A DNA stretch of 48,876 nt from Chara braunii. Lineage: Eukaryota > Plantae > Charophyceae. The translations under genes and the position numbers were made by a program. The notes beneath the pieces were generated by a model. The model saw only the letters and a list, made by a program, of their open reading frames with translations, searched no databases and was not told the DNA's origin. The stretch lies in contig BFEA01000034.1 in NCBI GenBank assembly GCA_003427395.1, forward strand, positions 5,052,690 through 5,101,565. The letters run 5' to 3'. This document shows, piece by piece, positions 6,181 through 48,876 of this stretch. Numbering within the stretch: position 1 is the first letter of the stretch; every line of letters begins with the position of its first letter.

Positions 6181-6895
6181 TGTTAGTCCAAATAAACAAT
6201 CGTCGATGAGGCCCCAAACTCTAGGTGTTTCCCAAGAGTGTGTGTTGGGTGTCTTTCGCAGAAGGCATCCCCCTTTCTTCCCTTATAACGGGGATCAGAC
6301 CAGAGCTCAAAAGTGGGGTCCTCCATGCTCTCTATTAATCAACCCTCGGGACTATCACGAGGCTGATACTCACGACAGGATTTCAAGACAGGAGTGAGCA
6401 CCTCTTAGAGCACCCCCTCATGGTTGAGCCTTGGTGAGTGAAGGGAATCATGAGGGAAGAGGAAATACTAATGATGAAATGTGAGGTTATTTTGGAGAAG
6501 CATGAGAACTGGGAGGACGGAGCTATCCTGAGTATGGAGTGTCACAAAAAAGACTTGAGGGAGAATGCAGTTCGAAGGATTAAGGAAGAAAATTTCATTG
6601 AGTTCATGTTTTATTTTCGAGATCAGAATGGCGAGTTGCATAGAACAGCACCTTAAGCTAGCGAGTGTCACTCCATAATTTGCAGTCTCTTCAACTCTCA
6701 TACACTAAGTGACCAGTGTTTATTTCATTATCCAACCAGTATCCAGACAGCATTCAATCAGCATTTAGTCGTTAGAGTTAGTTGAAAGTTTCAGTCAGAG
6801 TCAACCAGCACTCATTCATTCGTATTTGCATCAGAGATCAACAATCAATCATTACTAAAAGACAAAGGGATTGATTTTAGCATCCGACTCTGCTC

Positions 6896-7525
6896 ATGAC
6901 TGCAGTTAAGTCTCTTCTTGTCAGTGAGTCGGTTTTGACCAGCCTTAACAAGATAACCCTCAAGGATGCCTTCCAATACCGATATGTCAGTGCAGTTGGT
7001 TTCAGGCAGGGAAACCTATCAGTTTTTGTGGTTCACATGAAGTTTGCGGGAGGTACCATTCATGACTTAAGGGTCTACCTGAAGAGGGGCAAGGAGACTC
7101 ATGAACACTTCGATTCAGTTTGTGTCTCTACAACCAGGTACCTTGAAGAGAGAGAGAAAGACGTTGGTGAGAACGATGCCAAACTGATCCGTAGCTTCGG
7201 ACCCAAGCTTTACATTGACTACCCCAAGCCTCCGGTACCCTTCACTCTCACAGATGGTTCTTACTAGGGTGACCTGGTGGATCTGGCCAAGAGGTACATC
7301 TCTCCCACAACAATTGACTATGAGGCAGTGACTTAGCCTTCAGAGTTCCGGCATCTCAGACGAGGGATCTTTTCTCAATCTTATATTCCTACTCTATGGG
7401 AGGAATTTTGTGCTATGGTTGACTTCTGTATCATTGGACCTGGGTGGAAGTGTTCAGACCTTGCAGGCTTTAGATGGCTCTGTATTCAGCGACCGCAACC
7501 TCAGAAAGTACAGGGGCGTGGCTGA
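6896..7525 (+). pseudogene. ~209-codon orphan ORF with two in-frame TAG stops
   Basis: ORF 6896-7267 continues in frame past TAG 7265 and TAG 7334 to TGA 7523. An acceptor-like TTTTAG lies just upstream. Confidence 0.55.
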
Positions 7526-8324: not shown

Positions 8325-8843
8325 AGATAGAAAGAATAAGAAGAATTTATGCTAGCGTCCCCGACGCGTTTCAACGGCCGTTACGCCGTCATCATCAGGG
8401 GGAATTCCACCGACAAACCCGTACTAACTAAGCTGACCACTAACCCACTTCCGCCTGCTGAACCTACTGGTCTCCGGACACCGATAGGCATCGCAGGCCG
8501 TCAGTCCTGAAGAGAACAAACAATTGGCTCGGGCGCAATTTATACCCAAAAGACAAGACCACACACTATGACTGAACTTCATCTACCAAAACGCAGGTCA
8601 CCAGTTCGAGCTGGATTCTATAATGCCCAATGTGACCCACATACTGAGAAGGCCAGACCCGTAGGCCTACGAAAGGGGAACCAACCACTTACGTCCGAAA
8701 CCGGATAGTACCAGCCTTCGAAGGTAACCAAAGAAAATACCCTACATGCCAAACACGAGTCATACTCTACGGCCTCCCTAAGAAGGCAAATCAAAACCAA
8801 GCATCAGCAAACAAACAAATACAGAAACGAACGAAAAGAAACA
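8325..8843 (-). mobile_element. ~520-bp non-coding hammerhead-containing insertion (PLE-derived or retrozyme-like)
   Basis: Flanked by the 7-bp direct repeat GCAAACA (8318-8324 and 8844-8850); interrupts an ORF; carries a hammerhead. Confidence 0.65.
8358..8403 (-). ncRNA. Minimal type I hammerhead ribozyme
   Basis: Minus strand reads UCCCC CUGAUGA U GACGGC GUAACG GCCGUU GAAA CGCG UC GGGGA: core boxes, stem I, stem II, palindromic stem III, GUC site. Confidence 0.85.
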
Positions 8844-9200: not shown

Positions 9201-10050
9201 CAGGGTTGTCGAGCCCCGGCCCCGGGGCCCCGGCGGGGGTCCTAGGGGCCGGGGGTGGGCACCCCTGGCCCCAGCAAAAAAAGTAAAAAAAATAAAANAA
9301 AAAAAAAAATAAAAAAAAAACAAAATAAAAAAAAAAGGGGGGTGCGCAGCCGCAACCTGCACCCCCTGGGCCAAACTGCAATATTGCAGTTTTGGCCCGA
9401 CCTCGCCCCCCCCCCGAGGCTACACTCCACCCTCGTAAGCCCGGGGTAGTGCGGGCGCGGGGCCGGGGNNNNNNNNNNNNNNNNNNNNNNNNNNNNNNNN
9501 NNNNNNNNNNNNNNNNNNNNNNNNNNNNNNNNNNNNNNNNNNNNNNNNNNNNNNNNNNNNNNNNNNNNNNNNNNNNNNNNNNNNNNNNNNNNNNNNNNNN
9601 NNNNNNNNNNNNNNNNNNNNNNNNNNNNNNNNNNNNNNNNNNNNNNNNNNNNNNNNNNNNNNNNNNNNNNNNNNNNNNNNNNNNNNNNNNNNNNNNNNNN
9701 NNNNNNNNNNNNNNNNNNNNNNNNNNNNNNNNNNNNNNNNNNNNNNNNNNNNNNNNNNNNNNNNNNNNNNNNNNNNNNNNNNNNNNNNNNNNNNNNNNNN
9801 NNNNNNNNNNNNNNNNNNNNNNNNNNNNNNNNNNNNNNNNNNNNNNNNNNNNNNNNNNNNNNNNNNNNNNNNNNNNNNNNNNNNNNNNNNNNNNNNNNNN
9901 NNNNNNNNNNNNNNNNNNNNNNNNNNNNNNNNNNNNNNNNNNNNNNNNNNNNNNNNNNNNNNNNNAGGGTGGGCCACCCCCGCGGCGGGGGTCCGGGGGT
10001 CAAACCCCTACCCCGGCTTTGCCCCAAGGGGCCCCCGCCTGACAACCCTG
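9201..10050. mobile_element. Non-autonomous hAT-like DNA transposon (interior partly an assembly gap)
   Basis: TIRs CAGGGTTGTC / GACAACCCTG with a perfect 8-bp TSD GATGCAAC (9193-9200, 10051-10058). Confidence 0.9.
9469..9965. other. Assembly gap (N run)
   Basis: Run of n. Confidence 1.
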
Positions 10051-12053: not shown

Positions 12054-13298
12054 TGTTACACGCCCATATGGCCGATGTACATATATAGTGAGGAATCCGC
12101 AATGTGATGAAAAATACTGAACGGATAATGAAGTGCTAGCGGAATCTCAACAAGCAGTATACATCCTGATACATACAAAAATCGTACTTTGTGGTGCAGT
12201 GGCAGACTTAGATATAAGCCCTTACCTGACCGGGACCAACCTCCCTCACTTAGTACAAGACAGCGTAGCGAAATGCTAGAATACCAATGACTAGCCCAAT
12301 CAATGTAACAGTTGCAATGTGGACCAAACATACATCATCCTCATCACAAGGTGCGAAGCGGGGGGTGGCGCTATACAAACGAAGACTGCGCCAGATTCAG
12401 ACCATACACAAACGAAGAGGAGGAGATCAGACAAAGAAGAGGGGGAAGATGGGAATGTCGTTAACACCAAGACTTTGGTACAAGTCCCAGATAATCCCTC
12501 GTCAAATGTCTGAAGCCCAATGTCGAGTCTGGACCAAATGTCACGGATCCCGCTCTCTCGTAGTCTGCTGATGCAGTGAAGTCATAAAGCGAGAGGGTGA
12601 GAGGGAGATGGTGGACTGAGAACAAGAAGAAGAAGAACTCTCTCTTTCTCGCTCTCTCATGTGCCAGGTACTAACCTATGAAGATGGCGCTGTGCTGCAG
12701 GTACCTCGAAGACGAAGTTGGAGCTATGGCGATGCAGGTAAGTCTCCCAGGCCTCCGCCCAATCTCTCTCTCTCTCCAGTACTACTCTAACTCCTACTAG
12801 CGCCCAGCGCTGAAGACTACTGCTAACGCTACTACTACTATTGCAGCGCGCCTCCAGAGTGCTGCTGTCGAATCCTGAAGACTACCTCATGCCTCCTGAA
12901 ATGCAAGTGAAGTGCCTGGGAAGTCCCTATGAACTACCTACAGCCTGCAGGGCGGGCCAATCTTATATAGTGTTGGCCCGTCCAGGAGGTTGCTCTTGCC
13001 AATGCCAAAATGTGTTAGACCCTACCGTTGAAGCTTAAACAAAGGTTGTCATGAAAACAGGCCCAAAATGGCCTGTGCTAAACCCCTGGTCTAGTGCCTA
13101 AGTTTCAGGGCAGGTCGATCTTATGAGGCCCTGAAAATGGCCCTCCGTTTCAGGCTGAAAATACTCAGGGCCCGGAGGGCCCTGTTTTAGGCTGAAACGA
13201 CACAGGGCCTGTAGGCCCTTGTTTTCAGGCTTTCAGGCTGAAAACGACACGGGCCTGAAAATGGCCCTTGCAGCCTATTGCAGGCGCAGCATGTAACA
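12054..13298 (-). repeat. 3' LTR of Ty3/Gypsy element A
   Basis: TGTTACA...TGTAACA termini; adjacent polypurine tract on the minus strand (13299-13309); homologous to 16234-18183. Confidence 0.9.
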
Positions 13299-13309
13299 CC
13301 CCCCCTCCT

Positions 13310-13943
13310 TATGAAGTCAAGTCGGGTCGAGGGGAAGCTGACGATCTCAAGGTGGAACCTGGACATGGGTGCGACGTGCAGCCGAAGATACTGGCTTGCC
13401 TTGCATCTTGCGTTTGTAGAGTGCGAGAACATCTGGAGCTGTTGCTTGGAGTTCCACACGCGTCAACCAATGGTCGGCTTTGTGGGTGCAGTACGCAAAG
13501 TGTACCAAGGAGATGATGTCGCCGACCCGACCGCTTGAAAACCGTCCATAGAGGGTGGGTCTCGCGATCGTCGCCCAGGAAAATCATCATGTTCCGCTAG
13601 CGCGTAAAGAGCCAACTTGGAGCCATGAAAAATCAGGTAGACGGGCAAGTGGGCGGGCACCTGAATGGTGAAGGAAGGTCCTTCGAGTGCATCCCCAGGG
13701 GGTGCCACGATCGGCCAGGGCCCCATCCATTTGGGGAGGAGCTTGCGATAGTGGATGCACAATCATACATCCTCGTTCTTCTTCTGTACGAAGAGAACTG
13801 GTGCTCCATATGGGGAGCTACCAGGGCGGATCCAACCCTTGTCCAACAAGTCATCGCGTTGCACGCAGAGGACTTAGCTCCTCCTCGCTCATGCGGTAAA
13901 TGCAGTCTTTCGGCGGCACGACACCGGCCTCAAGAATGATCTC
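13310..13943 (-). pseudogene. pol: Truncated pol: RT N-terminus fused to integrase C-terminus and chromodomain
   Basis: [11 protein letters not shown]...LCIHYRKL joins directly to LPKWMGPW...IFHGSKL, followed by LVHFAY...ADHWL. Confidence 0.8.
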
Positions 13944-15331
13944 CTAAGAGATCGGCAAATCTGGCACCACACCGGTAGGTGCCTCAAAAATGTCGGTGAA
14001 CTCGTCAAGCATCCACACCACACGGGGGTCTGAAAAAAAAATGTCTGTGGGTGAAGAGTCGGCTACTGCGACGGTCCGTAGGAAACATAGGCCTATCTCG
14101 TCGGGCTGCTCGTAAGCGTAAGTAGCCCGGACTGACTTGGCCATCACCACTTGGCACCAAATCGAAGGGTGCGGAAAAGGAATAGTACACGACACTTCGG
14201 TGCCGAAAGGTTTTCGAACGGTAAGAGTCCGCCGGTGAAAGTTGACCGTGTGATCCGTACTTGCAAGCTGAGGCATTCCCAAAATAACATTGAAGTCCAT
14301 GTCCAAAATGTCGAACGTCACCGATTCGCATGCATAAGGTGCAAAATACATTGGTACGGCCTCGATGTAGAGGTCGATAAGTTGTTGCGTCCTTCCGTCT
14401 GCCAACTTGATCGCCATCGGGTTTGCCTTCCTCCGAACTTGTGCGCTAAGGTCAGCCTTTTGCATAAAGGCCTGGCTCATGAAATTGTGAGACGTGCCGC
14501 TATCCAGCAAAGCGATGTAGGACGCTTGTCCAACTTGGATGCAGACATAAAGGAGCGGTGCATTGCTATCATCGTACCACTGCTTGCTTAACACGCCCCC
14601 CGACCGAAAGTATAAATGTGCTTGATGTTTGTCCTCGCTGATGTGGTGTAGCTGCAACTTGAGCTCGAACTTGTGGAACCATGGAATCGGGTCGATCTTT
14701 GTCGAATTGCAGAAGATCTCATGACCATCGAACTTTGGAGTCGTCTCGCCCTGTGCCGAACTTGGTGTGGCGGCGGCAGCAGAGTTCCGCTGCTCTAGTC
14801 GTTGCGTGGCGGCTTGTTGTAGCTTGGAGGAGTTGGCATCGAGGGCGGCGATGGGCCGTTGCTCCAGCTGCTGGAGGCGGCTGTTGAGTTGAGCTGATTG
14901 TGCGTCTGATCCGCGTCGTCGAGGCTGTGGATGTCCTCCTGTTGTGCAATGCACGTTGCCAGAAGGTTCGTGACATGGGAGAAGAGTAGAGCGATCTTGC
15001 TTTCACTCTCTTCCATCTTACCATTCTCGACCTCGGCTTGCCAGTCCGCTGCCATTGTGAGCAAAGCTCGCGCTCCGTTGAATATCTTCTCACGTCGTTG
15101 ATTTTGTTCTTCATCGGCAGCCTTTGTTGCTGCCTCGTCTTGCTGGCGCTGTTGTTCGATTCCCAACAAACGTGCCTTCTCGGCGTCCTCTGCCTTCTTT
15201 TTCTCTGCGGCCGCTACCTCATCCTCCAGTTTCTTGGATTCGGTAAACAAAGCCATCATCCGGGCCTGATAGGCCTCGGCCGTTTCCCTAGGCTTCTGAT
15301 CCATGCCGGCTGTTTGTAAGTGCGTGAGCAT
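13944..15331 (-). pseudogene. gag-pol: gag and aspartic protease of element A (frameshifted, internally deleted)
   Basis: ORFs 14795-15331 (coiled coil) and 13944-14954 (PKFDG...WFHKFE; ALLDSGTSHNFM; DFNVILGMP). Confidence 0.85.
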
Positions 15332-16233
15332 AGATCAGGCTCGAGGACTGCTGGTGTGGCATCCCTGCTGCTGACGTGGCACTGCTCGGTTGTTGATATG
15401 GCGCGACTGTCGACTGACGTGTCCTGCCGATGTAGTCTGTTGATGTGGCCTGCTGACGTGGTCTGCTGACGTGGTTGACGTGGCAACTCACCAATGTCGT
15501 CGCAGGGGATACCCAGAGACATAGAGAAGACCAGAGGGGGCAACAACATAGGTTGGAAGGGGTGGGTGGGGTAGATCGCCCAGATAAGGAGCCACTAATA
15601 AAAAAGAAAAGTTTGAACTTTGCAACAAAATTTGAGAGACAAAAAAGATACTCGTTTGCAAGTTTGGTAGGCCTCCAAATTCCCCCTGAAGTGCCAATGA
15701 GGAAAAAATTTCAAACTTTCATACTGCAAATGATTATCCAATAACAAAATTCCGAAAATAAAATACAAAAAAAATATTCGTAGTTACTCAGATGAGAGTA
15801 CGCGCAGTTTCGAAAATGATAATTGCAAACGGGATTTCCCATAACGTTTTCAAATCTCGAAAAACGAATGAAAACAAAAAATAAAAATAAAAAATTCCGG
15901 ATAAATAACGGGAAATTGCAAAAGGAAATTGAAATTTCCGAAAAAAAAATATTTCGGATTTCCAACAACTGAATTTCGAATTTTCCGAAGAAAAACGAAA
16001 ACGGAAATTTCAGGTGTTGTGCTATTGCGATTTTCCACAAGAGAAACAGCGGGAAAACAAAATCCAAGAAAAGGAAAAAAAAGTTCAATATTCGGCAGTT
16101 AGGTCAGAATCGTGATTTTAGGGCTAATTACTATGCTCTAATCATCAAACAATCAAAACTAATTAACTGCTTAGTCCCCACACACGTGTCAGATCAACCT
16201 CTCCTGATTCACGTGCGGTGTTCCGATACGAAC

Positions 16234-18183
16234 TGTTACATGTCCATTTGGGCGATGTACATATACAACCAAGAATCCGTAATATGATGAAAAGGATTGA
16301 ATGGACAATTTAGTGCTATTGGAATCTCAACAAGCAGAGTACATCCTGATACATACAAAAATGACACTTTGTAGCGCAGTGGAAGACTTAGATATAAGCC
16401 CTGACCTGACCGGGACCGACCTCCCTCACGTAGTACACGACAGCGTAGCGAAATGCTAGAATACCAATGACTAGCCCAATCAATGATGCAATGCGGACCA
16501 AACATACACCATCCTCATCACAAGGTGTGAAGGGGGGTCTAGCGCTACACAAAGGAAGACCGCGCCAGGTCCAGACCATCACAGACGAAGCGGAGGAGAT
16601 CAGACGAAGAAGAGGGGGAAGATGGCAATGTCGTGAACACCAAGTCTTCGGTACAAGTCCCAGATAATCCCTCGTCAAATGTCTGAAGCCCAATGTCGAG
16701 TCTGGACCAAATGTCACGGATCCCGCTCTGTCGTAGTCTGCTGATGCAGTGAAGTCAAGGAGCGACAGGGTGAGAGGGAAATGGTGGACTGAGAACAGGA
16801 AGGAAAAAAACTTTCTCTCTCTCTCTATCATGTGCCAGATACTAACCTGTGAAGATGGCGGTGTGCTGCAGGTACCTCAAAGATGAAGCTGGAGCTATGG
16901 AGCGGCAGGTAAGTCACCCTGGCCTCTGCCCAATCTCTCTCTCTCTCCAGTACTACTCTAACTCTTATTAGCGCCCAATGCTGAAGACTACTGCTAACGC
17001 TACTACTACTACTACTGCAGAGAGATGGTTAACGGGTGCATATATTTTCATGTCTCCTTTCAAGGCAGTTCAACCACTTTAGGTTACTACACCACTTTCA
17101 GATTGTGTGTGAATCTATACATGGGGTTGTTTGAAACCGCGTTCAGGCAGTTTAGCTGCTTCAGGTTTATACACCACTTTCAGATTGTCTACAGATCCAT
17201 TGCAAATGGTGGGATGCGGGTACCTGAAACCCCTTTCAGAAGCTTCTGCCACTTTAGCGGTCTCAGGTCCCCACCTGAGATTCCTGAAATGACCTGAAGT
17301 GGCTGAAGCTTCTAAAAGGGGTTTCAGGTTCCCCCATCCAACCATTTGGATGGGGGTACCTGAAACCCCATTCAGAAGCTTCATCCACTTCAGCGGTTTC
17401 AGGTCCCCACCTGAAATTCCTGAAACGACCTGAAGTGGCTGAAAAAACAGGCAAAAAAAAAAAAAAAAAAAAAAAAACCCATAAAACTTGTCCTTCAAAC
17501 CACCCGAAACTTCTTAAATGACATGAAGTGTTTTTAGGCCATTTCAGCGGTTTCAGATCACTTCAGAATCTTTCATTCTGAAATTTCAGGTGGCCCGCTA
17601 GTAATACTGTAGCGCTACTCCAAAGTGCTGCTGCCGAATCCCGAAGACTACCTCTTGCCTGCTGAACTGCATGTGAAGTGCCTGGGAAGTTCCTATGAGC
17701 TACCTGCAGCCTACAGGGCGGGCCAATCTTATATAGTGTTGGCCCGTCCAGGAGGCTGCTTTTGCCAATGCCAAAACGTGCCAGACCCTGGCGTTGAAGC
17801 TTAAACAAAGGTTGTCTTGAAAACAGGCCCAAAATGGTCTGTGCTAAAACCCTGGTCTGGTTGAAGCTTAAACAAAGGTTGTCTTGAAAACAGGCCCAAA
17901 ATGGTCTGTGCTAAAACCCTGGTCTGGTGCCTAAGTTTCAGGGAAGTCGATTTTATGAGGGGCTGAAAATGGTCCTCCGTTTCAGGCTGAAAATAATCAG
18001 GGCCTGGAGGGCCCTGTTTTAGCCTTTAGGTTGACACGACACAGGGCCTGTAGGCCCTTGTTTTCAGGCTTTCAAACTGAAACGACACAGGGCCTGTAGA
18101 CCCTTGTTTTCAGGCTTGCAGGCTGAAAACGACACGGGCCTGAAAATGGCCTGTGCACCCTATTGCAGGCGTAACATGTAACA
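16234..18183 (-). repeat. 3' LTR of Ty3/Gypsy element B (contains an insertion and a ~67-bp tandem duplication)
   Basis: TGTTACA...TGTAACA termini; PPT starting at 18184; aligns with LTR A except for 17021-17601 and a duplication at ~17793-17927. Confidence 0.9.
17021..17601. mobile_element. MITE-like insertion in LTR B with many CCTGAAA/TTTCAGG repeats
   Basis: Absent from LTR A; flanked by the imperfect duplication TACTACTGCAG / TAATACTGTAG. Confidence 0.65.
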
Positions 18184-20008
18184 CCCCCCCTCCTTATGAA
18201 GTGAAGCCGGGTCGAGGGCAAAGCTGTTGATCTGAAGGTGGAACCTAGACGCGGGTGTGACGTGGAGCCAAAGATACCGGCTTGCCTTGCATCTTGCTTT
18301 CGTAGCATGCGAGAACATCTGGAGCTGTTGCTTGAAGTTGCGCATGGGTCAACCAACGGTCGACTTTGTGGGTGCCGTACGCAAAGTGTACTAAGGAGAT
18401 GATGCCGCCGACCTCTTGAAAACCGTCCATAGAGGGTGGGTCTCACGATCGTCGCCCGGGAAAACCATCATGTTCCGCTGGCATGGAAAGAGCCAACTTG
18501 GAACAATGAAAGACCGGGTAGACGGGCAAGTGGGCGGGCACCTGAATGGTGAAGGAAGGTCCTTCAAGTGCATCCCCAGCGGGTGCCACGATCCGCCAAG
18601 GCCCCATCCATTTCGGAAGGAGCTTGTGGTAGTCAATGCACATTCGTAGATCCTTGTTCTTCTTTCGTATGAAGAGAATTGGTCCTCCATATGGAGAGCC
18701 ACCAGGGCGGATCCAGCCCTTGTCCAACAAATCATCGCGTTGCCAGTGGAGGACCGTAAGCTCCTCCTCGCTCATGCAGTAAATGCAGCCTTCCGGCGGC
18801 ACGACACAGGCCTCAAGAATGGTCTCGTGACTCGTGAGAGATTGGCCGATCCGGCACCACAACGATATGTGACTCGAAAATGTCGGTGAACTCGTTAAGC
18901 AACCGCATTACACGGGGGTCCGGAGACAAGTCCGTGGGTGAAGAGTCGGCTACCGCGACGATCCGTAGGAAGCATAGGCCTATCTCGTCGGGCTGCTCAT
19001 AAGCNCAAGTANCCCGGAATGACTTGGCCGTCACCACTTTGCAGCGGATCGAAGGGTGCGAAAGAGGAATAGTACACGACACTTCAGCACTAAGCGTCCT
19101 GAACAGTAAGAGTCCACCTGTGGAAGTTGACCGTGGGATCCGCACTTGCAAGCCAAGGCATTCCCAAAATAACGTCGAAGTCCATATCCAAAATGTCGAA
19201 CGTCACCGGTTTGCATACATGAGGTGTGAAATACACTGATACGGCCTCGATGTAGCGGTCGATAAGTTGTTGCGTCCTTCCGTCCTCCAACTTGATCGCC
19301 ATCGGGTTTGCCTTCCTCCGAACTTGTGCGCTAAGGCCAACCCTTTGCACAAAGGCCTGGCTCATGAAATTGCGAGACGCGCCGCTATCCAGCAAAGCGC
19401 TGTAGGACGCTTGCCCAACTTCGATGCGGACATAAAGGAGCGGTGCGTTGCTGTCATCATACCGCTGCTTGCTTAACTCGCGGGCCACCTTGGTAACATA
19501 CGCAAGGATGTCCCCCACCGCAGCTTCATCCTCCGTGGGCGAAGTTGGTGGTGAATAGAAGGATAGATACGTGTGAAGATGAGCGCATAATGTTGCGCAT
19601 TGTGGTCCCGACAAACGGTCAGTGGTCGGGAAGGAAGCCATGCGAAATCCTTGGACGTGAGCGGGTCCAATACCTCTATGTTGAACTCGTGCGCCGAATC
19701 CCGTGAAGAACCACTTGAAGACGAAAAGTTGCAGCTGCCGGACGGGAAAATGTCGCACACACATCTTGTCCTTGAGCATGAGTACCCAACGTAGGAACGA
19801 GCCGGGCAGCATAGTCCTCATAAGAATCTAGAAGAGGAGGACTATCGACTTCCCCATGTGCCTCAGAACGAAGGGTGGTCACTCGCGAAGCGACCGGTTC
19901 CGAAGGCGTCAAGAGTGTTGTCGACTCACTCCCGGCGGTGCTTAGTTTTCCGATTTGCCTTTGCCTTTCAACGGGCAGCCCACTGTGTCGTGGAGATCGC
20001 TGTTACAC
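18184..20008 (-). mobile_element. pol: Internal region of non-autonomous Ty3/Gypsy element B, cut by a MITE and a gap
   Basis: ORF 19090-19821 (ALLDSGASRNFM, DFDVILGMPWL) and ORF 18443-18862 (GWIRP..SPYGGPILF..KK..LRMCIDYHKL|LPKWMGPW). Confidence 0.88.
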
Positions 20009-29813: not shown

Positions 29814-32579
29814 ATGAAGAAAACATCCTCATGGGATGACATCCGGAGCTCGCTACTGCCATCAGACCCTTCGCTGCACTACGACCGCCCACAGCACACT
29901 GCTAAATCGCCATGCTCGCAATCCCTGCAGATGTCCCTACTGCAGGTATACCAAGCCACACTGGGACGAACACCTTTTCTGATTGAAAATCTCTCCTTCA
30001 CCGACTTAGCTTCGCTTGTCCATATCATGTAGAACAAGCTAGAGGAGCTCAATGCCAAAATTCAAGACTTCGCCAACAACATCACCGACTCCTGCAGGAA
30101 AGCAGCTATCGAGAACAGGGAACTGAACCTTATGATTGCCAAAGCCGAGAAAATCATTATCGAGCTACACGGATATGATTCGTCTCACCTGGATTCCGCT
30201 AGACACGTTTCCATCACTGAGAGAACCGAAACTTTCAGCGAGACATACATAACTCGCATGTCGCTCTCGCAAGCCGAACTTGACTACTTCAGAAAAAAGG
30301 AGGCAGAACGGAGGAACAATGCATACGCTGAGCCTTCTCTGATCGCAAGAGATGCTGGACACAAATATGCTAAGAAAAACCCATTTTTGTCGTTGGCATC
30401 CGGCATATGGACTGAAAAAGCCGTATTGCGCGTTCATAACAGACTCTGGAAACTTGACACATTCAACTACACTGCACCAATTAGTGTCGAAGCATACATG
30501 GCTCTTGCCAGGATCACAAAAGCAGAAGTAGAGAACTGCCGCGCTGCTGCGAGGAACGGGAACATCTACTTTCCGGCGACCAGGTGCGGATTAGATGCAG
30601 AGTTCCCGCCGATTGTCAATCTCAAGAAGGGTAAATGTCCAAAGAAACCACTCCTCCACCAGAAAGGCATCCCGAAGTTCCCCGCAAACCTCTCTGAGCT
30701 CAAGAAGATTTGGAATGCAGGAAGGCCTTACCTGAAGTGTCCATGCAATGGTTGCGAGAACAATTTCACCTGGTTCGATCATATGATCTGGTACGTCATC
30801 GGCAACCTGGATAAGATAGACCCGCAAGCTCCTTCGGACAAGATCAGGATGCTCGAGTTCCAGGCATTGCTCCAAACAACTTGGAGAAAGCCGGTACTAG
30901 CGCAAATTTCCTTTGTCTTCATGAGAGAATACATGATCAAGATCGTTAACATGATCCTTACACAGAACAACAGAATCTCTGCAGAAGAAGTCATGGAGCA
31001 TGAAGACCTCAGACACGTACCGTTCGCCCAAAAGTTTGATGTTGCCCTGCTCCCCGGCGCCGATGGGGTCCTTCACACCTGACAAACATGAGACCCTCCA
31101 CAAAAGTCGAGGACAATTCGTTGAGAAGATGTAGGCAAATGACTCGGCAGCACGCCGATCCCAAATGCCTTGTTCACCACACCGGGTCGAACAACAGCTA
31201 CCACCCCTATACAGCAGACACAGACTGGCAATACACTCACAAGAGAATCGGGCAACCCGACCTGCAACACGCAAGGTTTCAGCAACACACCTTCCGAAAC
31301 CACTCCCACTGTTACCCCAACAACAGCTACACCTGCCGTGACTACAGCACACGTGATGCCATTACACCAAGACAGACAGACGCCTGCAGCAACAAGCACA
31401 CCTTTGCGAAGCACAACATCTGCTAATCTCAGCCCCGTAACAAATACCACTGCCCACGTGACACACGGCTCTAATAACGGCACGACAATAAACGCCATTA
31501 GCAACACCATTCCAGCGCCACAGCGACACACTGCCGACGCAGCAACCACACTCTGACCAGTAATAGAAGGTTTCGCACATGCACAAACAAGAACTAATGC
31601 CTTCGCAACTTCTGTCGCACAACTCGCCGCACGACAGAACAATGTCGCCTCCACCAACAACTCCGCTCCCACGCCCGCCACCATCTCCATGCAAACTGCA
31701 ACAAGACTAGCCAGCACTACACATAACTGCTACATTACACCCCTGAACGACCAAGCCAACACACACACAGCACACATCATTAATAACACTGCACCCATGA
31801 CCACAATCTCACTTCCAATACACCTAAGCACACACACGATCAACCAAACTACCACAGCCCCCACAGATAGCCAAAGACAAGCCCGACGGAGAGAACAACT
31901 TCTGAGCATAGCCATGAACCCGCTTCCGGCTGAAACTAGAAGAAACCGCAGAAGGGGTAACAAAACACAAAGGGTGCACCTTCCAAAGACAAGGACACAG
32001 GCCAAGAAACAGACAAGAAGGAAGAAGCCACAGTACGACGGGCGACAACCAGACATACAGGAGGCCTTCCTGGCGCAACAGCTATGACAGCCGATGATTG
32101 CGGCTCACCAACATGCACCATCGCATGATACGACTGAGATAGCGATGGCTCTTGCATCGACCAGTGCTCCGAGGCTACAGAGAGGAGAACGAGAATGGAC
32201 ACCACGAGAAGACCTGATCCTTAGACAATGGACGCAGACGGGCACGACTGCGAAAATACCCCCATCCGAGCGACAGACGGCAACAAACGTTGAAGTCATC
32301 CAGGTCATCAGCTGCGACATCAATGACGAAGAAAGAAGACAGCTCCCGATCACAATCAGCTCCCCATCACATGACACGCCGAGCCGTCCTATCTCTGGCA
32401 TTGACGCCCTTAGAACAAACTATGGAGCCAGCAGTGCGGACTCTTCGCTGCTTCGAACCAACAGTGGTAGCACGACGCATATGACAGAATCTCAATCTTT
32501 AGAAGAGTCATGGAAACGCGTTTGTAGAAGGCTTAGTCCAGATTACCAAAACAACCTCCCTAACTTGGGCAGAAGCTAG
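29814..32579 (+). pseudogene. ~921-codon ORF: globular N-terminal half with CxCxxC, Thr-rich linker, basic patch; 7 in-frame stops
   Basis: ORFs 29805, 30132, 31170, 31689 and 32094 share one frame. Stops are TAG 30030 and TGA 31080, 31089, 31122, 31140, 31554, 32085. Preceded by TGCAG|GATG. Confidence 0.8.
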
Positions 32580-35695: not shown

Positions 35696-36298
35696 GGAAT
35701 AGTTAACTGAATTTAACTTTATTTATGCTCGTGCTCAATCGATGATCATACTCGATAGCGTGGTAATTTTCATACTATCTCACCCCTATACAGTTCCCGT
35801 CTAGCAGCGTGCGCATCATCATATCCTTACATCACATAGGCGTGTTGTGTTAACTTATGTATCGCGCCATTATGACCCTTACTTATTAAGCTCCTATTAA
35901 CTATAAACTTACAAGTGTTGTTTTGCATGTGCTGTCTTGCATAAAAATTTGTGTGTTGTGCTGCCAAGACGCAAAAAATAAGAAATCGAGAAAATCAAGA
36001 GAAAGGCCACAATAAAAATTTTCTAAATAGGCTTATTGACTTCATAGAGGAGAAAAAAAAGATTGAAGGAGGAAGAAGAGAAAGGAAAGAGAAAAGAGAA
36101 TGGTATAGGGTTGTACGTTATCATGGTCACTAGCACAAACATACAATCTCCTCTGATAAAATGACTAGATACCTTTTTTTTACATGAAATATTATACCGC
36201 TCATTACCGTGCTTGAGTCGCTTTCCTGTATCCATCCGATGATAAAATTATACTCCTCCCATATTCATCCTACCTCGTTGCAAATACTTGACCGTCAC

Positions 36299-37032
36299 AA
36301 TAACTTATGAACTAAATTAGGTACTCTCTACCGGATCGACTGTCGTCGTGATGGGAAGAGAGTACTAATAATAACTTATGAACTAAAATAGGTACTCTTT
36401 ACCGGATCGACTGTCGTCGTGATGGGAAGAGGGTTTTAACAATAACCTATGAACTAAAATTAGGTACTCTCTACCGTAACGACTCTCGTCGTGACGGGAA
36501 GAGATATCTAACAATAACTTATGAACTAAGTTATGTACTCTCTACTGGATCGACTGTCGTCGTGATGGGAAGAGGGTACTAATAATAACTTATGAACTAA
36601 AATAGGTACTTTTTACCGGATCGACTGTCGTCGTGATGGGAAGAGGGTTTTAACAATAACCTATGAACTAAGATTAGGTACTCTCTACCGTAACGACTGT
36701 CGTCGTGACGGAAAGAGGTATCTAATAATAACTTGTGAACTAAATTAGGTACTTTCTACTGTAGCGACTATCGTCGTGATGCGAAGAGGTATTTGACAAT
36801 AAGTAATGAGTTAAATTAGGTGCTCTTTACCGGATCAACTGTCGTCGTGATGGGCAGAGGTGTCTGACACTAACCTATGGACTAACTCATATGCGAGTTA
36901 CCCTACCATCTGCCGGATCGAATGTCGTCATCACGAGTAGAGATGTCTGACACTAATTTATGAACTAAATGAGGTACTCATGTGTGAGTTACCATACTCT
37001 TTACCGGATCGACTGTCGTCGTGAAGAGGAGA
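36299..37032. repeat. 71-72-bp minisatellite, ~10 units, each with an internal hairpin
   Basis: Unit starts at 36301, 36372, 36443, 36515, 36586, 36657, 36729, 36800, 36871 and a longer last unit. Confidence 0.95.
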
Positions 37033-37149
37033 ATAGTCTGCTTCTTCAATTATCCCACCTTACATTCCCGCCGCCATCGTGCGTACATGATCCACCCTTC
37101 GTTTTGTAAATCGTACCAACGGATCATTACTTATGTATGGAGCTTACGC

Positions 37150-40772: not shown

Positions 40773-41574
40773 ATGACTCCGCGGACAACTAACGAGGACC
40801 TTGGAAGAAAGTATAAAGATGTGGAAAATATGATTGTTGTTTCTCTCGGTAACTTTCACCGTTGTAGTACAGATTCAATATCCCCACCATTGGTTTTATT
40901 GAGTTTGGTTTGTGAGTTTCGGTATGTGGGAGACCTGGGTTAGAATCCCAGCGATGGTAGAGTGTACCAAGAAAGACAATATGAATGTTGACCGCATCTT
41001 AATCCAGAGACTCGGATTTGGCTATCCACTTATCAAAGATGCACCTTATTTGGGAAAGGGTTTCACCTTCTCTTTCAAACAGGAAAAGAGAAGGACATGT
41101 ATTGTTTTGTATTGTATCATCTGTCTAGTAGTGTCATCGATCTTGTCATATTTTACCAATTGATTTGATATTGGGAAACGATGTGAACGGGAACTTCATG
41201 AGCGATTGTGATAAAACGCCCTTAGCGACGGGGATGTCGCTTAATGGGGTCTGGGATACTGTCGGACCAAATACCCTTACAAGGGTATTTGGACATGCTT
41301 TTGCATTTGTCACAACGACGATGTCGGCTACCATGACGGAGTCAGTCGGAGATGAAAAGGGTGTGCACGTTTTAGCGTGACATTTGAAATGATTTCCTCG
41401 GTCATCGATGCCAGGGCGAATTGGTGAGGAAAATTTCAAGAGTATGAGCGCGCGTTATTATGACGTGTGCTGTGATGGTTAGGATTGGTATAAATACCCT
41501 CCGACCGAAAAGGTCGAGGGGTTAGTTGGATGAATATTGTGTCGGGTAAAACTACGACACGCACTGAGATTTGA
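40773..41574 (+). pseudogene. Decayed orphan ORF following a structured block
   Basis: MTPRTTNEDLGRKY...SVTFEMISSVIDARANW*GKFQEYERALL*RVL*WLGLV; many TGA stops and probably a frameshift. Confidence 0.4.
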
Positions 41575-41994
41575 TCTGATACCTGTTTACCTACCAGTAC
41601 CAGGTATTTAAAAATGTCAACGTTTGTCTTCCTCTGCTCGGCCTTGAGTACCCGCAACACATTTATCTCTACTTAGTTTAGTAACGACACACCCGCTACT
41701 CGAGTATTTTCCAATTGCTTTCGAGTGTCGTGGAGCTTTTTGTTCGCCACTTAAGTGTTTTCCCCTGCACGACCCTCAAATATCGCGGCCACGGCTAAGT
41801 ACCGGCCCTTCGGGCCCTCCGGTTAACCAAGTACCCTTGCGGGTTACGCATACACTCAAACCGACAAGCATTCCGACAGACATGCAACCCCGGCAAGCGA
41901 GCGCACCCGCAGACTTAGAAACGGGCTCAGACCACTAGGTGGACTGAGCCCCACTTCAATATATACCTGAGCTGCTCTTCTTGTAACCGAAGTA

Positions 41995-42083
41995 GGAGCT
42001 AGCTCAGTGGGTTTCCGTGTGGATTGCAGATTGGAGGACTCGGGGATCGAATCCATCCGACCTCTGAACTAGCTCTTTTTTTT
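41995..42083 (+). ncRNA. Small Pol III RNA copy 1 (vault/VA-RNA-like architecture)
   Basis: A box TAGCTCAGTGG, B box GGATCGAATCC, terminal stem GAGCTAG.TCAG/CTGA.CTAGCTC, T8 terminator, upstream TATA-like motif. Confidence 0.75.
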
Positions 42084-42112
42084 AAAAAAAGCTCAATTTT
42101 AGCCCCGCATTC

Positions 42113-42170
42113 GGCTGACGGGGACTTGAACCCGTGACCTTGTTAGTTAGAGTTAGTAGTTATAGTCAGC
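42113..42170 (-). pseudogene. tRNA-like remnant
   Basis: GCTGAC/GTCAGC acceptor-like stem and T arm GGGTTCAAGTCCC; no D arm or anticodon arm. Confidence 0.4.
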
Positions 42171-43220
42171 TTCGTTTGAAAACGAGGGTTCGACAGTTGG
42201 CATGAGTAGGTATTTAGTTGTTAGATTTGGTTGTTTTTTTTATTTTATTTCTTTTTCGTTGTTAGTTGGATTCGTTTTAATTTTAATTTAATTTTATTTC
42301 TTTTATTATTTCTTATTTCCTTGTTTTCTTGCTAATCCCATAGCTGCCTCAAGTTTCTAAAAGATTCACTATAGTGAATCTACGAAGGAAAGTCCAGCAG
42401 ATTCGTTTTGACGAAATCTGCTCGACTCCATACGTACCAGCCCGAGACTTTGGCCCGCATGCTTGGGCTGAGTGCACGGGCAAACGCAACGAGCGCATAA
42501 CAACACGGGAGGAGAGCTCCGACGGGAAGAAAAAAAAAAAACGCGCGGGGAAGGAAGAGGAGCACGGCGACTAAGGCACCGGCGAAACGCGAGGAGAACA
42601 ACAGAGGGAATACGCGGTGTCAGGGCAGAAACCCTGACAAGGGTATCTGCCCGTGTTTTTCAACATCGGACGTTGTTTGACCTTTTTCTTAATTGGAGGA
42701 CTTGATGAGATTGACGTGCCAAAATTATTCAGACCAGCGCTATGACTGAGAGACTTAAACTTTTTTTGAACCTGACGTCGTCGACGCAGGATGACATCGA
42801 CATCCGTGTGGGATAACGGGAGTCGGCACTGTCATCCGAGGGTCTCGACAAGGCCGCAGTAGTGTGCGGTCATGGGAAAACTAAAATTAAAACTTAGTCT
42901 ACCTATAATAAGGTTGCGCGACTGTTAAGCTGGGCAATTCAGGGCCTATGCGGGCCAAAAAGGGGACACCGCGACGAGATTGGATCGCGGCGTGAAGGAA
43001 CGGTTTAGGGTCCATAGGGCTTATGTGCCGAGGACCCGGGGGCGAAGGCGTCGAGGCCGGCAGGATGGGGCAGCTGTGAAAGTTGTCGGCCATCGACCCC
43101 GCCCGCCAGCCACGGCAACAAGCTGGCTTAGCAGGCGCAGCCTGCTAGGCGCTGGGAAGGGGCCTGCTGGGCACCAGGAGCCCTTCATATAGAAGGGTCG
43201 CTCTTCTTCTGATGTGAAAA

Positions 43221-43312
43221 GGAGCTAGCCCAGTAGGTATTGACGCCAGCTTATCACCCCGCAGATATGGGGATCGAATCCGACAACTTGCACTACCGGG
43301 CTAGCTCCTTTT
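43221..43312 (+). ncRNA. Small Pol III RNA copy 2 (vault/VA-RNA-like architecture)
   Basis: A box TAGCCCAGTAGG, B box GGATCGAATCC, 15/16-bp terminal stem, T4 terminator, same upstream TATA + GCTCTTCTT. Confidence 0.75.
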
Positions 43313-44009
43313 GGAGCAGCCCGTGACTTGACCATGGGTGTGGCCGATTTTCGGCCGTGCGATCTTCGAGATCGCGCGGCTGAAATCAGCCGGGCCGAGA
43401 TAGCATGGCCCCTGTGTAAGGACGACACGCATATATCGAGAAAAGGGCCAAATTTTATTTTTCTTATTTTGGAAAAAAAAAAAAAAAAAAAAAACCTTAC
43501 CTGTTCCGTAGCTGGACGCGTAGGCATCCAGGTACGGGCGCGAAGGAGACAGCAACAATGTCAAGGTAAGTTGGTTCGTTTTTCTTTTGTTGTTTTTCTT
43601 TTGTTTTCCTTTTTTTTTTTTTTTGTGTTTCTGGTGTCATCGGGGTAAAGCGACACGACGAGAAGTGAATGTTGGGGAAGAAGAGGAAAAAAAAAGAGAA
43701 AAAAAGAAAAAAACTAAACTAAACTAAAACGAAGCGCCATCTGGCGCTGGGAGAACTGACGGGGACTTAGTGTCCCCACGAAANGTAACGGGCGCCCGTT
43801 TTTCGGGCAGCCCTTTCAGATCAAGGTAGGGTTTTCCTTTTCTTTTTCTTTCTCTTTTCGATTTTTTTCATTATTAGATTTTGCTTAGATTTTTTTTTTG
43901 TTTCTTTTGTTAGATTTGGTTTAGATTTTTTTTATTTTTTTTTTTATGTCTTTTGTTTTTTCCTGGTACCCGTTCGTTTCAAACGAACGGGCCGACACGA
44001 CTGTGCCAG

Positions 44010-44060
44010 ACTGTTTCGTCGGACTTTCACCGACTCATCAGGAGGCTGAACCCCGACAGT
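44010..44060 (-). ncRNA. Intact type III hammerhead ribozyme
   Basis: ACUGUC^GGGG UUCAG CCUC CUGAUGA GUCGG UGAAAGU CCGAC GAA ACAGU: all core nucleotides and three stems present. Confidence 0.92.
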
Positions 44061-44252
44061 ATGCCCGTGGGCAGTGAATGTGCCGCCTTAGGCGGCTAGG
44101 TTCAGAGAGAGAGAGAAAAAGAGAGAAAAAAACAGAGAGAGAGAGAGAAGAGGAAAAACACACTTACCTGCGCCCGTTGGGCAACGGGCTGCAGATCGCC
44201 GCCACACCTGGCGTAGTAGGCGTCCGGGTCCGGGTGCGCGGAGGGAGGGCAA

Positions 44253-44285
<33 letters not shown>

Positions 44286-44302
44286 ACTCTGTGAAATGAC
44301 TT
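44253..44302 (+). rRNA. 50-nt fragment of 25S/28S rRNA (domain V entry), not a gene
   Basis: AAAGAAGACCCTGTTGAGCTTGACTCTAGTCCGACTCTGTGAAATGACTT matches the conserved plant LSU sequence as I recall it; flanks are not rRNA. Confidence 0.85.
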
Positions 44303-44519
44303 AGGGAGGGGAGCTTGCTCGGTTGTTTCCAAACGACGAGCTGCCCCTGCGGTAGGAAAAAAAAAAAACACGAAAAGGAAAAAAAAAAGGGGGGAAGAAG
44401 TTAGAAAAAAAAAGGGGGGAAACGACCGCGGATCTAGCCACGGCCTCGGTCTAGATGCAAGTTTAGAAGCATCTGGACTATGGATAGATAGCAGACTGTT
44501 GGTTTCAACAGTCTGCTGG

Positions 44520-45518
44520 AAAAAGGCTTGGTACAGCCGTTTCGGGGCTGCGTCTGGCCGCGGGTGAAGGCCAGATGCACTGCCAAGGTTTATGACTTGG
44601 TTCCCCTAGGGGAATATCAAGTTTCCTGGCCCTTGATCGCGATTTTGATCCAGGGCCAGGCTCTGTTCCGAGATTTGGTTGGGGGCAAAGTAGCTGCCCT
44701 CAGCCTTCAGCCAACTATAAGAGCTAGCGTGCCACCCAGCAGCCTCACACTTGTGGCAATGCTGCTGGGGCATTCTACTTGAGTAGATGCTGGTTGGCTG
44801 ACTGCTGGTGTGATGAGGCGAAGTGTTGGAGGTCTGCAGTAGCACTTGGAGGAAGGAGGATGCAGCCATAGCTAAAGGCTAGGAACTTCTTGCCCCACCT
44901 TCCGTGCTGTGTTGCGGGCTGTGGGGAAGCCGTAGCCTTGAGGCTGCTGCTGGATTGGGCGGTACGGCGGAAGCGCTGCCGAAATTGTGCGGCGGCAGCG
45001 CTGGTTTTCTTGGCGGTACAGCGGAAGCGCTGCCGAATTCTTGTAGTGGCAACACCGATTTTCTTGGTGGTACGGCGCGGGTGCTACTGGATTGTGTGGC
45101 AACAGTATTTTGCACAGGACTGCGAGAAGGGGGGTTGGACGTTGCCGCAGGGACGATACCGCCAAGGTGGAAGTGCACTTTGTAATAGAAAGGGTATGAT
45201 GATCGTCTTGTTGAGGACGTTGCGGCACGCGGTACCTATAAGGACTGTTAAGGCCGCTGTTAATTTTTTTGCGGCACACTGAGTAAGCGGGGATTGGGTC
45301 CGAGACCACCAAGTATTGCGGCAAGCAGATGGTGGCCTGGCTTGGTATTTGGTGGGTTGAATCGGTGCTGTCTTTGGTGGAAGGTGTAACATTGAAACTG
45401 TGGGATTTGAGAGTGTGACGCCCTCCTCAACGACGGGCTCGCTTCTGTGTTGGTGAGCGGCGCCTGAGTCAGAGGTGGCGGTCGAAGGAGGGTGTGACCC
45501 ATCCTTGTGAGTGGCCAC
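44520..45518 (-). pseudogene. Frameshifted Pro/Ser-rich ORF, probably part of another TE
   Basis: Overlapping ORFs 45084-45518, 44879-45178 and 44606-44869; internal repeat FGSASAVPP. Confidence 0.3.
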
Positions 45519-46606
45519 AACGAGAGTTTTGCGGCCGAACTTTTTTCAGCAAATACTTGGCTTTCTTGAGTGAGCCTTCAAAAAATTCACTCAAAGTCAG
45601 TGCAGCTCAATTCCCTTGCACACCCGCGTGAACCCACACCTTGCATGACCTTGCTTTGAATTCAGGGGAAGAGGTAGAGTAAGAGTGTGATGTCATGCAT
45701 GTGACGAAAGGGCTGACTTGTTTTGGGGATGGATGGATCTCTGGATTGTTTCTTTTCTTGATTGTGCAGGTAGGTTGGGGGATGCATGAGAAAAGGAATC
45801 AGCATTGTTTGCTTGGGAGAATAATGGGGATGCTCACCTCTCTCCCACTCAACCTGAATGCATGTGACAAAAAAAAGGAGGGAAAAAAAAAAAAAACGGG
45901 AGTGCGAACGAGCGGGTGCCGGAAGAATGAAGACCGTGGGAAAATTAAAAGGAAAGAAGATAAGGAAACACCTTAGTATCCTCCCAAGGGTTTCCCCATT
46001 CTATCCCGAACGACCACTATCCTTCTATGCCCGTCCAAAGTATCTTACTTCTTTCTCTTCTCAATTCGTCTAAGTCGACCCTTAGCCGGGAAGGCATAGA
46101 GCGGTCGTCCGCACCTAGCGTCTAGGCTTCTTCTCTCTAGGAGGCATCCGAGGCGGGGGTTCGTTGCCTTAGGGGCCGGCCCTGTTATCGACTCGAAGCG
46201 GACCGCTTATGCGGGGGGATACCATGCTGTTGCGGTGGAGCCAGCCTAACTTCTGAGTCCTGAACAATGTGTTCGGGCGAGGGGGAGGGGTATTCCAGAC
46301 CACTTCTTAGAGCGTAGGGGGTCTTGAAGCTAGGAGCAGGCGCCTCCTCGTGCTTTCAGGGAAAGGGGAGGCTGAATCTAGTACCCTGCTGGGTGGCCAT
46401 ATTAGGTGCCACCAACGCGTGGGAGGGCTGGCGCTACAAGAAGCCCAACCCGTACTTCAACTAGTGTTAAAGGAAGTGCAAATAGGCACTACTTACGCGG
46501 TCGGACCGTGACATAAGAATCGCGGTCCGAAAAGGGGGGTGAAAATTGAATATGGAAATTGGTATGCCTAAATTTATTTTGACAAAGTTATCACTTCGTC
46601 GTTCAG

Positions 46607-47106
46607 ATGCTTGCGGAGACAGTGACCCCCCGATTGTTCAGCACACGCGAGGCGGCGGCTAATTGGTTAGCGGTGCCGACACGATCCCGCGCCGGTATGA
46701 TACGGAAAGGAAGGTGTACAACCCACTTGAAGTTTACTCGGAACGGGATGTGCCACGATTCTGGGACGGGAGTGTGAGGAAACCACCGTGGTGTTATATT
46801 TTCTTGGTTGAACCAAGCTAGCATATTGTACGATATGACTTCGCACCGCTCTACCCGTCTCGGGATTATGGAGACATGAACCTTGTCGTGATCCACGAGG
46901 ACTGTCCGAGAATAGAGACCATTCTTGAGATTAGAGCGATGTTTATTCACATTGTACTCCACTTGAATGATCTACGAGGTCCGTTCGGCCTCCTTCATCA
47001 TGTGAGACGGGTCTGAGCGAATAGATTTAATATCATTCGCTCGGAACGTTTCGACGTCACCGCGTTTTATGACGAGGCTTGTGAAATTTACGAGCGCCTC
47101 TTCTAA
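46607..47106 (+). pseudogene. Decayed orphan ORF starting at TTCAG|ATG
   Basis: MLAETVTPRLF..., frameshift, then ...RKVYNPLEVYSERDVPRFWD...YDEACEIYERLF* with TAG/TGA stops. Confidence 0.5.
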
Positions 47107-47129
47107 CAGGTGGCTTCTTCGATTTGCAG

Positions 47130-47681
47130 ATGCCTAACGGACGACGAGACTTCACTCAGGCCAAATATCTACTGATTCACGACACTACGGACGAGGAGCT
47201 GATCCGGCGAGCGGAGCGATTACTACTGGTTCGAAATGGAGCACCCACACGTTGGATTGGCTTTATCGGCCTGCTCAGTGATGGGCAGGGATTTTTTCCC
47301 AACTCGCGCGCAGATGTTCGTGCCAATATGACCCGACTTCCGGAAGAAGTTCATGGATATACCTTGTACTTCCATCGCGCGAGCAACCTCCAATGCCTCT
47401 CTCGGGTCATTGTGAGCGTTAAAATTACCCTATCCGGGAAGCGCTACGGCGTCATCCGGATTAAGCACACCACGACCACGCACCTTTTTCGGATGCGTCA
47501 GCCGTTCCGCGCCATAGTCTGGAAGCTCGCCTTACGGATGGCTTCTCTCTATGATATGCGGAAGGTCCGAGTTGTGCGAGGTGGACGTGTTTCCACCTTG
47601 ACATTTGACGATGAGGAGCTAACACGCCTCGGTCGGATAGAGGCTGAGGCCCATGGGGGCCGACAGGTTTATCCCGGCTAA
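47130..47681 (+). CDS. Intact 183-aa orphan basic protein starting at TTGCAG|ATG
   Basis: Open ORF with protein-like composition; CTAAC branch-like site at 47103 and a pyrimidine tract upstream. Confidence 0.6.
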   Translation: MPNGRRDFTQAKYLLIHDTTDEELIRRAERLLLVRNGAPTRWIGFIGLLSDGQGFFPNSRADVRANMTRLPEEVHGYTLYFHRASNLQCLSRVIVSVKITLSGKRYGVIRIKHTTTTHLFRMRQPFRAIVWKLALRMASLYDMRKVRVVRGGRVSTLTFDDEELTRLGRIEAEAHGGRQVYPG

Positions 47682-48778: not shown

Positions 48779-48876
48779 CAGGGTTGTCGAACCCCGGCCC
48801 CGGGACCCCGCCGGGGTTCCGGGGTTCCGGGGGTCGGCACCCGGGACCCCGGCCCCCTGTAGGGGAAAAAAAAAAA
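48779..48876. mobile_element. Left end of a second hAT-like MITE of the 9201 family
   Basis: CAGGGTTGTCGAACCCCGGCCCCGGG... matches the start of the element at 9201. Confidence 0.85.

Follow-up and report, generated by a model that had tools for sequence, protein, structure and literature searches.

Hairpin RNAs that are encoded by parasites and are products of RNA polymerase III (Pol III) have been described for adenovirus and a small number of retroviruses, and tRNA-derived promoters are known from short interspersed elements (SINEs) and miniature terminal-repeat retrotransposons (TRIMs). Here we describe two paralogous Pol III-type units, unit 1 and unit 2, in a 48,876-nt stretch of the charophyte alga Chara braunii (assembly GCA_003427395.1, contig BFEA01000034.1, positions 5,052,690 to 5,101,565 of the forward strand). 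This whole stretch is hereafter called the window, and all coordinates are counted from its first nucleotide. An initial annotation, based on the sequence alone, had described the units as a pair of genes resembling vault RNA or adenovirus VA RNA genes. With a probability of roughly 0.45, we read them as element-encoded cassettes for Pol III panhandle RNAs. Each sits in one of a pair of related modules of a Chara-type repeat that is multicopy and non-coding, and its product would be a Dicer substrate or decoy.

The comparisons with described systems given here refer to the portions of the cited texts that were available. The likeness to adenovirus VA RNAs I and II lies in a Pol III product (here predicted) encoded by a parasite, a pair of paralogs, and a long terminal stem, which in VA RNA can saturate Exportin-5 and Dicer (PMC5511817). 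However, VA RNAs are viral, 157–163 nt long, and carry an apical stem and a central domain (PMC5511817), whereas the Chara units measure 90–96 nt, have unrelated middles that differ in fold, and belong to an algal repeat. Membership of the VA RNA family was rejected: no Rfam VA model matched, the size differs, pattern scans of a viral contig collection gave no match, and a nearby reading frame has Chara protein homologs. Pattern scans of a metagenome contig collection were likewise negative. Vault RNAs (RF00006) share with the units type II A and B boxes, a variable middle, closed ends, an oligo-T run, and a similar size (PMC7058938). In contrast to vault RNA genes, the units are present at high copy inside a repeat and are preceded by an upstream segment complementary to their 5′ arm (the anti-arm, see below), and the vault model scored only 12.1 bits on unit 1 (gathering threshold 34; E 2.9) and did not match unit 2. 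The initial comparison with vault and VA RNAs thus holds for the layout, with arms and boxes kept and the middle varying in other copies, but not for family membership.

Bovine leukemia virus (BLV) offers a further parallel with its Pol III pre-miRNA genes, in that these are compact Pol III genes within a mobile genome, with an A box in the 5′ arm, and a 3′ end made by the terminator; long BLV transcripts are, in addition, poor sources of the hairpin (PMC4267658). The B boxes of BLV are found downstream of the terminator (PMC4267658), whereas the Chara units, hosted by an algal repeat, carry theirs internally. Helenus, Cassandra, and Ajax (TRIMp3), for which Selaginella is the only plant host named in the available text, are non-autonomous elements with tRNA-derived A and B boxes but without a functional cloverleaf (PMC10886601). 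The Chara repeat could not be assigned to TRIMp3 since it lacks two near-identical long terminal repeats (LTRs); it also differs in being far longer than ~1 kb and in carrying a terminator and a panhandle directly after the B box.

Unit 1 (41995–42083, plus strand) comprises an A box at 42000, a B box at 42044–42054, a 3′ arm at 42061–42076, and a T8 run at 42076–42083, with 81 nt preceding the latter. Unit 2 (43221–43312, plus strand) has its A box at 43226, its B box at 43271–43281, and 88 nt ahead of a T4 run at 43309–43312; when taken from 43217 onward, it is closed by a perfect 15-bp terminal stem and folds with a z-score of −5.02. Both units start with GGAGCTAGC, with the A box at +6, and carry an identical B-box 11-mer (starting at 42044 and 43271). 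Their middles measure 30 and 31 nt, respectively, and the T run directly follows the 3′ arm in each, an arrangement also found in the BLV pre-miRNA genes (PMC4267658) and one that favors the panhandle-cassette reading. Tested against the type II Pol III consensus (an A box, a B box 30–60 nt downstream, and a T4–6 terminator; PMC4267658), the units showed A-to-B spacings of 44 and 45 nt and terminators of T8 and T4. An ATATA motif is located 39 nt ahead of the A box in both (41961–41965 and 43187–43191, plus strand; the second in a hairpin loop), and the motif GCTCTTCTT precedes both A boxes by 26 nt. Two modules that are otherwise unrelated share this promoter geometry, which argues for the panhandle-cassette reading.

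The combined A- and B-box pattern occurred twice in the window and in none of 100 shuffles, a test that, with a pattern derived from the two units themselves, shows only that the pairing is not due to chance. Global alignment of unit 1 with unit 2 gave a score of 86, as compared to a mean of 23.9 (SD 8.1, maximum 53) for 1000 shuffles. Coordinates, alignment, and shuffles thus bore out the initial description of paired units with an A box, an identical B box, terminal pairing, and oligo-T. Its statement that a cloverleaf is lacking was likewise confirmed, as neither ARAGORN (0 tRNAs) nor Rfam (no RF00005 match) detected a tRNA at the units. The B box carries an A at position 54, which may point to descent from tRNA-Ala or initiator tRNA-Met. 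Within the window, the unit middles, when considered as possible guides, had no match of at least 12 nt elsewhere. Transcription had initially been placed at GGAGCUAG; because an A box at +6 is closer than the distance of ~8–20 nt found in the available text of PMC4267658, a start a few bases upstream is more likely. Two further candidates were discarded: a plant upstream sequence element (USE), for which the one loose match at 41950 lies too close to the TATA motif by the usual spacing, and a U1 origin of the CTTACCTG motifs, for which Rfam gave no U1 match.

Counting from GGAGC, the unit ends were compared for pairing at the first 16 positions of the stem; 14 of these are paired in unit 1 and 15 in unit 2. 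Two of these positions have changed on both sides with pairing kept (U-A/C-G and G-C/A-U), one is G·U in one unit and G-C in the other, three are broken in a single copy, and ten are identical. The initial claim that the stem is kept despite sequence change was thereby sustained: retention of the stem is real, yet it rests on few events. Fold z-scores relative to shuffles were −2.35 for unit 1 and −4.59 for unit 2, and the predicted probability of the terminal stem in short RNAs was 1.0 for both.

Copies of the repeat were surveyed through contigs of four DNA runs of the organism, including X1 and X2. In these runs, the region from 41.3 to 45.9 kb consists entirely of multicopy repeat. X1 yielded 3009 contigs on 41300–43345, 752 of which were at least 95% alike, and the interval 43150–45900 recruited 11,943 contigs from X1 and 10,206 from X2. 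Individual contigs among those listed had depths of 8–25, while summed contig depth, which does not equal copy number, reached ~2,900 at unit 1 and 4,000–7,000 at unit 2. A safe lower bound on copies is given by the 33–68 distinct X1 contigs that carry single variants at or next to the units (60 at 41978, 68 at 41983, 54 at 43204, and 33 at 43250). The multicopy setting supports the initial proposal that the units are element-encoded; they are not stand-alone genes. In other copies, the A-box arm is joined to the 3′ arm (42012 to 43298, 42013 to 43303, and 43203 to 43298 or 43301, among the 15 of 43 and 15 of 122 joints listed), and in one contig 43239 is linked to 42044 with 30 other letters in between. 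These joints show that other copies keep the arms and the B box around a different middle of the same length.

Within the window, the repeat contains two related modules, each with a start hairpin followed by a unit 600–735 nt downstream. The start hairpin of module A (41260–41296, plus strand) is a paralog of the edge of module B, with 74% likeness to 42618–42660. At that edge and its start hairpin (42618–42652, plus strand), bin depth is 34,749, and 50 contigs end loosely ahead of 42618, with an agreement of only 0.41. Between these landmarks, the modules showed no significant alignment: the parts preceding the units align only over their first 50 nt, and the unit flanks do not align. Interpretation of the modules as an LTR pair was therefore rejected, the start hairpin and the unit being all they have in common.

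Upstream of each unit lies a 15–17-nt anti-arm that is similar to the 3′ arm and that pairs, in the folding models, with its own unit's 5′ (A-box) arm. In unit 1, it is located at 41967–41983 (plus strand) and contains GCTCTTCTT, complementary to the 5′ arm; its hairpin has a z-score of −4.32, and 1 of 1000 shuffles was as good as its duplex of −20.8 kcal/mol. For unit 2 (43195–43209, plus strand), the hairpin z-score was −2.73 and 9 of 1000 shuffles matched a duplex of −15.5 kcal/mol. When anti-arms were swapped, each preferred its own unit (−20.8 versus −14.4 kcal/mol for unit 1 and −15.5 versus −12.3 kcal/mol for unit 2). At the second T of GCTCTTCTT, most contig depth instead has a C (2187 of 2487 at 41978 and 3347 of 3581 at 43204), a change that improves complementarity to GGAGC. 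Both upstream motifs of the initial annotation, the TATA-like one and GCTCTTCTT, are thus present, and modeling suggests that the latter is better read as a structural anti-arm than as part of a promoter. As the anti-arm sits between the TATA motif and the likely start, it could pair only within a longer RNA or a single-stranded DNA. Among 25 long sequence contexts per unit, the upstream hairpin prevailed (P at least 0.6) in all 25 for unit 1 and in 18 for unit 2. For long transcripts, folding predicts that the anti-arm conceals the terminal stem.

If the units are panhandle cassettes, transcription factor TFIIIC would bind their A and B boxes, the TATA motif would position the start a few bases before GGAGC, and termination at the T run would create the 3′ arm. 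The resulting product would be a 90–96-nt RNA closed by a stem of ~15 bp. By analogy with adenoviral VA RNA and retroviral Pol III pre-miRNAs, such an RNA could serve the element as a Dicer substrate or decoy, and the functions proposed in the initial annotation (decoy, guide, or precursor) are candidates. In the folding models, the terminal stem would form in the short RNA, whereas in a long read-through RNA the anti-arm would capture the 5′ arm and hide the stem, so that the long RNA of the element would not display it.

Several observations weigh against this interpretation. The covariation is drawn from two full copies and fragments, and the four DNA runs represent a single sample that is possibly the source of the window itself. 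Swaps of the 3′ arm gave mixed results, with the 5′ arm of unit 1 pairing better with the 3′ arm of unit 2 than with its own. Hairpins abound in either strand throughout 41.2–44.8 kb, 6 of the 21 perfect hairpins of the window falling within 3.7 kb, so that a hairpin alone is weak evidence. Unit 2 has only a T4 terminator and runs into a mimic of U6 RNA and an A run, a layout reminiscent of SINEs. RNA data came from three oligo-dT raw-read runs (X5, X6, and X7), of which 6–13% each was read, and offered little: the interval 41300–43345 recruited only 72, 377, and 96 reads, respectively, nearly all from relatives (1, 5, and 0 at an identity of at least 99%), unit 1 reads were antisense, and no pile-up of RNA starts or ends was seen anywhere in these libraries, which are blind to discrete, non-polyadenylated 90-nt products. 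Strand assignment in X6 was calibrated on the 28S rRNA piece described below (first mates: 584 minus, 17 plus), and X6 reads over unit 2 were mostly plus-sense and extended upstream of it. The RNA reads show low read-through transcription of relatives and are uninformative on discrete products.

The U6-like RNA (43360–43457, plus strand) is full-length, begins 48 nt downstream of unit 2, and scored 43 bits with the Rfam U6 model (gathering threshold 44; E 8.9e-10). Its 5′ UUCG stem is kept and its 3′ half is close to U6, while the ACAGAGA box has been replaced; a T5 run (43458–43462) and a 22-nt A run (43473–43494) follow. The mimic is itself multicopy, and most copies carry a further change at 43393 that is also present in RNA reads. 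Further downstream lie a type III hammerhead ribozyme with an intact core (44008–44062, minus strand; Rfam 49.1 bits, above gathering) and a fragment of 28S (LSU) rRNA (44253–44308, plus strand; model positions from 2403, LSU_rRNA_eukarya 35.8 bits, E 7.8e-8). Joints in other copies connect the 28S piece with the hammerhead as well as with 44596–44597. Similar depth on both sides (~6,000), with the low-complexity tracts in between skipped, suggests that the U6 block and the hammerhead block belong to a single element. The family of this hammerhead is very large, with many different flanks and a summed contig depth of ~700,000 in X1; it is also transcribed, its reads in X6 and X7 being in ribozyme sense at about 2:1. 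A degenerate hammerhead copy occurs at 791–817 (minus strand; 89% over 27 nt) and another hammerhead-like core at 8370–8398 (minus strand).

These neighbors of unit 2, which the initial annotation did not mention, keep open a reading of the units as promoter heads of a composite transcript of SINE-like or dicistronic tRNA-snoRNA-like type. Polymerase would then pass the T4 run of unit 2, continue across the U6 mimic, and terminate at the T5 or A run, and the resulting RNA of ~245–280 nt would be retrotransposed or processed. We regard this as less likely than the panhandle cassettes. The succession of a weak T4 terminator, U6-like RNA, T5, and a 22-nt A run fits it, other-copy contigs bridge unit 2 and the U6 mimic (three listed records) at a depth that is similar over 43150–43425, and the plus-sense X6 reads over unit 2 came from poly(A)-selected RNA. 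Moreover, SINEs are mosaics that gain small nuclear RNA (snRNA) pieces by template switching, and composite SINEs, including SINEU, and U6 chimeric retrocopies share with the Chara locus the succession of a tRNA-type head, a part derived from an snRNA, and an A run (PMC4494074, available text). In Chara, however, the U6 piece lies downstream of the head, no target-site duplication (TSD; at least 6 nt) surrounds unit 2, the U6 mimic, and the A run, and homology in other copies extends far upstream of the head and for kilobases downstream, unlike SINE insertions. While unit 2 thus has the tRNA-type head and A-rich tail of a SINE, unit 1 has a T8 run and no U6 piece, and copies starting at the head and flanked by TSDs were not found. 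A promoter, furthermore, needs no 3′ arm kept complementary to its head.

Still less probable, in our judgment, is that the units are not independently transcribed and that the region is a patchwork of captured parts of RNAs (tRNA, U6, 28S, and hammerhead) in a larger element, with hairpins kept for folding, packaging, or replication of a long RNA or single-stranded DNA. Hairpins that score on both strands over 41.2–44.8 kb, an anti-arm that can pair only within a longer molecule, and sparse RNA from both strands are all consistent with this view, as is the finding that the window copy differs from its family mainly by transitions, as decayed copies do. Against it, the order of ATATA, A box, B box, 3′ arm, and T run is preserved in both units, as is the spacing of the first three, although middle and flanks are no longer recognizably related; this conservation of five elements makes Pol III function at some stage hard to avoid.

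A broader proposal would see in the locus a mobile element with a cassette of host-RNA mimics (VA-like panhandles that anti-arms switch off within the long RNA, a U6 mimic whose 5′-splice-site box is rewritten, the 28S piece, and the hammerhead) that act as decoys or guides against silencing and splicing, a counter-defense that would require no protein; we consider this improbable. A true host family of vault RNAs or other small RNAs lying among repeats is very unlikely, since the dozens or more divergent copies in a common repeat context contrast with 1–4 validated vault genes per species (PMC7058938, available text) and the model score on unit 1 is low, even though the vault model was among the three weak matches on that unit and vault RNAs conserve little beyond boxes A and B, with a variable central domain that hampers homology searches.

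With regard to the panhandle-cassette reading, the host of the units appears from its sequence to be a mobile-element-like Chara repeat with a collage of host-RNA mimics, for which expression and function are candidate properties. Among 93 stop-to-stop and 18 read-through frames, Pfam searches revealed no reverse transcriptase (RT), recombinase, or transposase near the units, and the only hits that passed cut-offs were Gypsy protease remnants at 14–20 kb. Neither RT nor GIY-YIG endonuclease (EN) domains were found by Pfam in 32.6–48.8 kb (the array at 36.3–37.0 kb being left out of the read-through scan), and the element may extend further or be non-autonomous. Homolog searches with three flanking frames found nothing. 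The open reading frame (ORF) at 47085–47678 (plus strand) gave five HMMER hits, four to hypothetical Chara braunii (CBR) proteins with 39–54% identity and one to a PKD-repeat protein that was judged spurious; it represents a Chara-only family without a Pfam match. A stop-interrupted frame at 46603–47412 may extend this ORF (weak, E 0.006).

The Chlamys/PLE-X Penelope-like elements (PLE) of Chara braunii resemble the locus in lineage and in being hammerhead-bearing repeats, and their Selaginella relatives target 28S (PMC8557442). According to the available text of that paper, this target (positions 1,121–1,126) lies in another part of 28S than the window fragment, and five window motifs gave no hits in the text of its supplement, in which line breaks could hide hits.

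A number of additional features were observed in and around the modules. A very strongly conserved block upstream of unit 1 (41783–41880; depth 42,704 in one bin) drew more RNA reads than any other part of its module and had no Rfam match. A weak, tRNA-like minihelix of acceptor and T-arm without D and anticodon arms (42114–42170, minus strand; fold z-score only −1.47) has a B-box match at 42132 (minus strand) and, with joints to 42117 and 42121, serves as a conserved anchor among other copies. In place of the D and anticodon arms, it carries an A/C/U tract with three CUAAC motifs, and a related 13-mer recurs at 43756. Intron-like stretches (GT, pyrimidine tract, AG) were noted at 42210–42343 (plus strand) and 44096–44167 (minus strand), with further starts at 43566 and 43826 (plus strand) and 43500 (minus strand); no spliced joints at these stretches were present among the rows listed.

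Elsewhere in the window, degenerate ~45-nt tandem repeats at 44872–45110 vary in copy number among relatives, and a tandem array with a unit of ~71 bp and ~10 copies occupies 36297–37040. Two nested or adjacent Gypsy-type remnants (12054–19999, minus strand) contain long repeats that are ~88–92% alike as well as protease domains. The intervals 9201–9275 and 48779–48853 are 83% alike over 75 nt and represent the shared, GC-rich end of a further small repeat, and a 349-amino-acid open frame at 30033–31082 (plus strand) showed a weak match to a GRF-like zinc ribbon (E 0.002, below cut-off).

In the literature covered, to which subscription papers, bioRxiv supplements, and Repbase did not belong, no report was found of a repeat in streptophytes that combines panhandle units ending in a terminator with an anti-arm switch and an adjoining U6 mimic. 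Should the predicted RNAs not exist, the units and the U6 mimic would still matter as sources of false tRNA, U6, or vault-like calls in annotation. If they do exist, a VA-like RNA strategy would have arisen independently in a transposon of an alga closely related to land plants.
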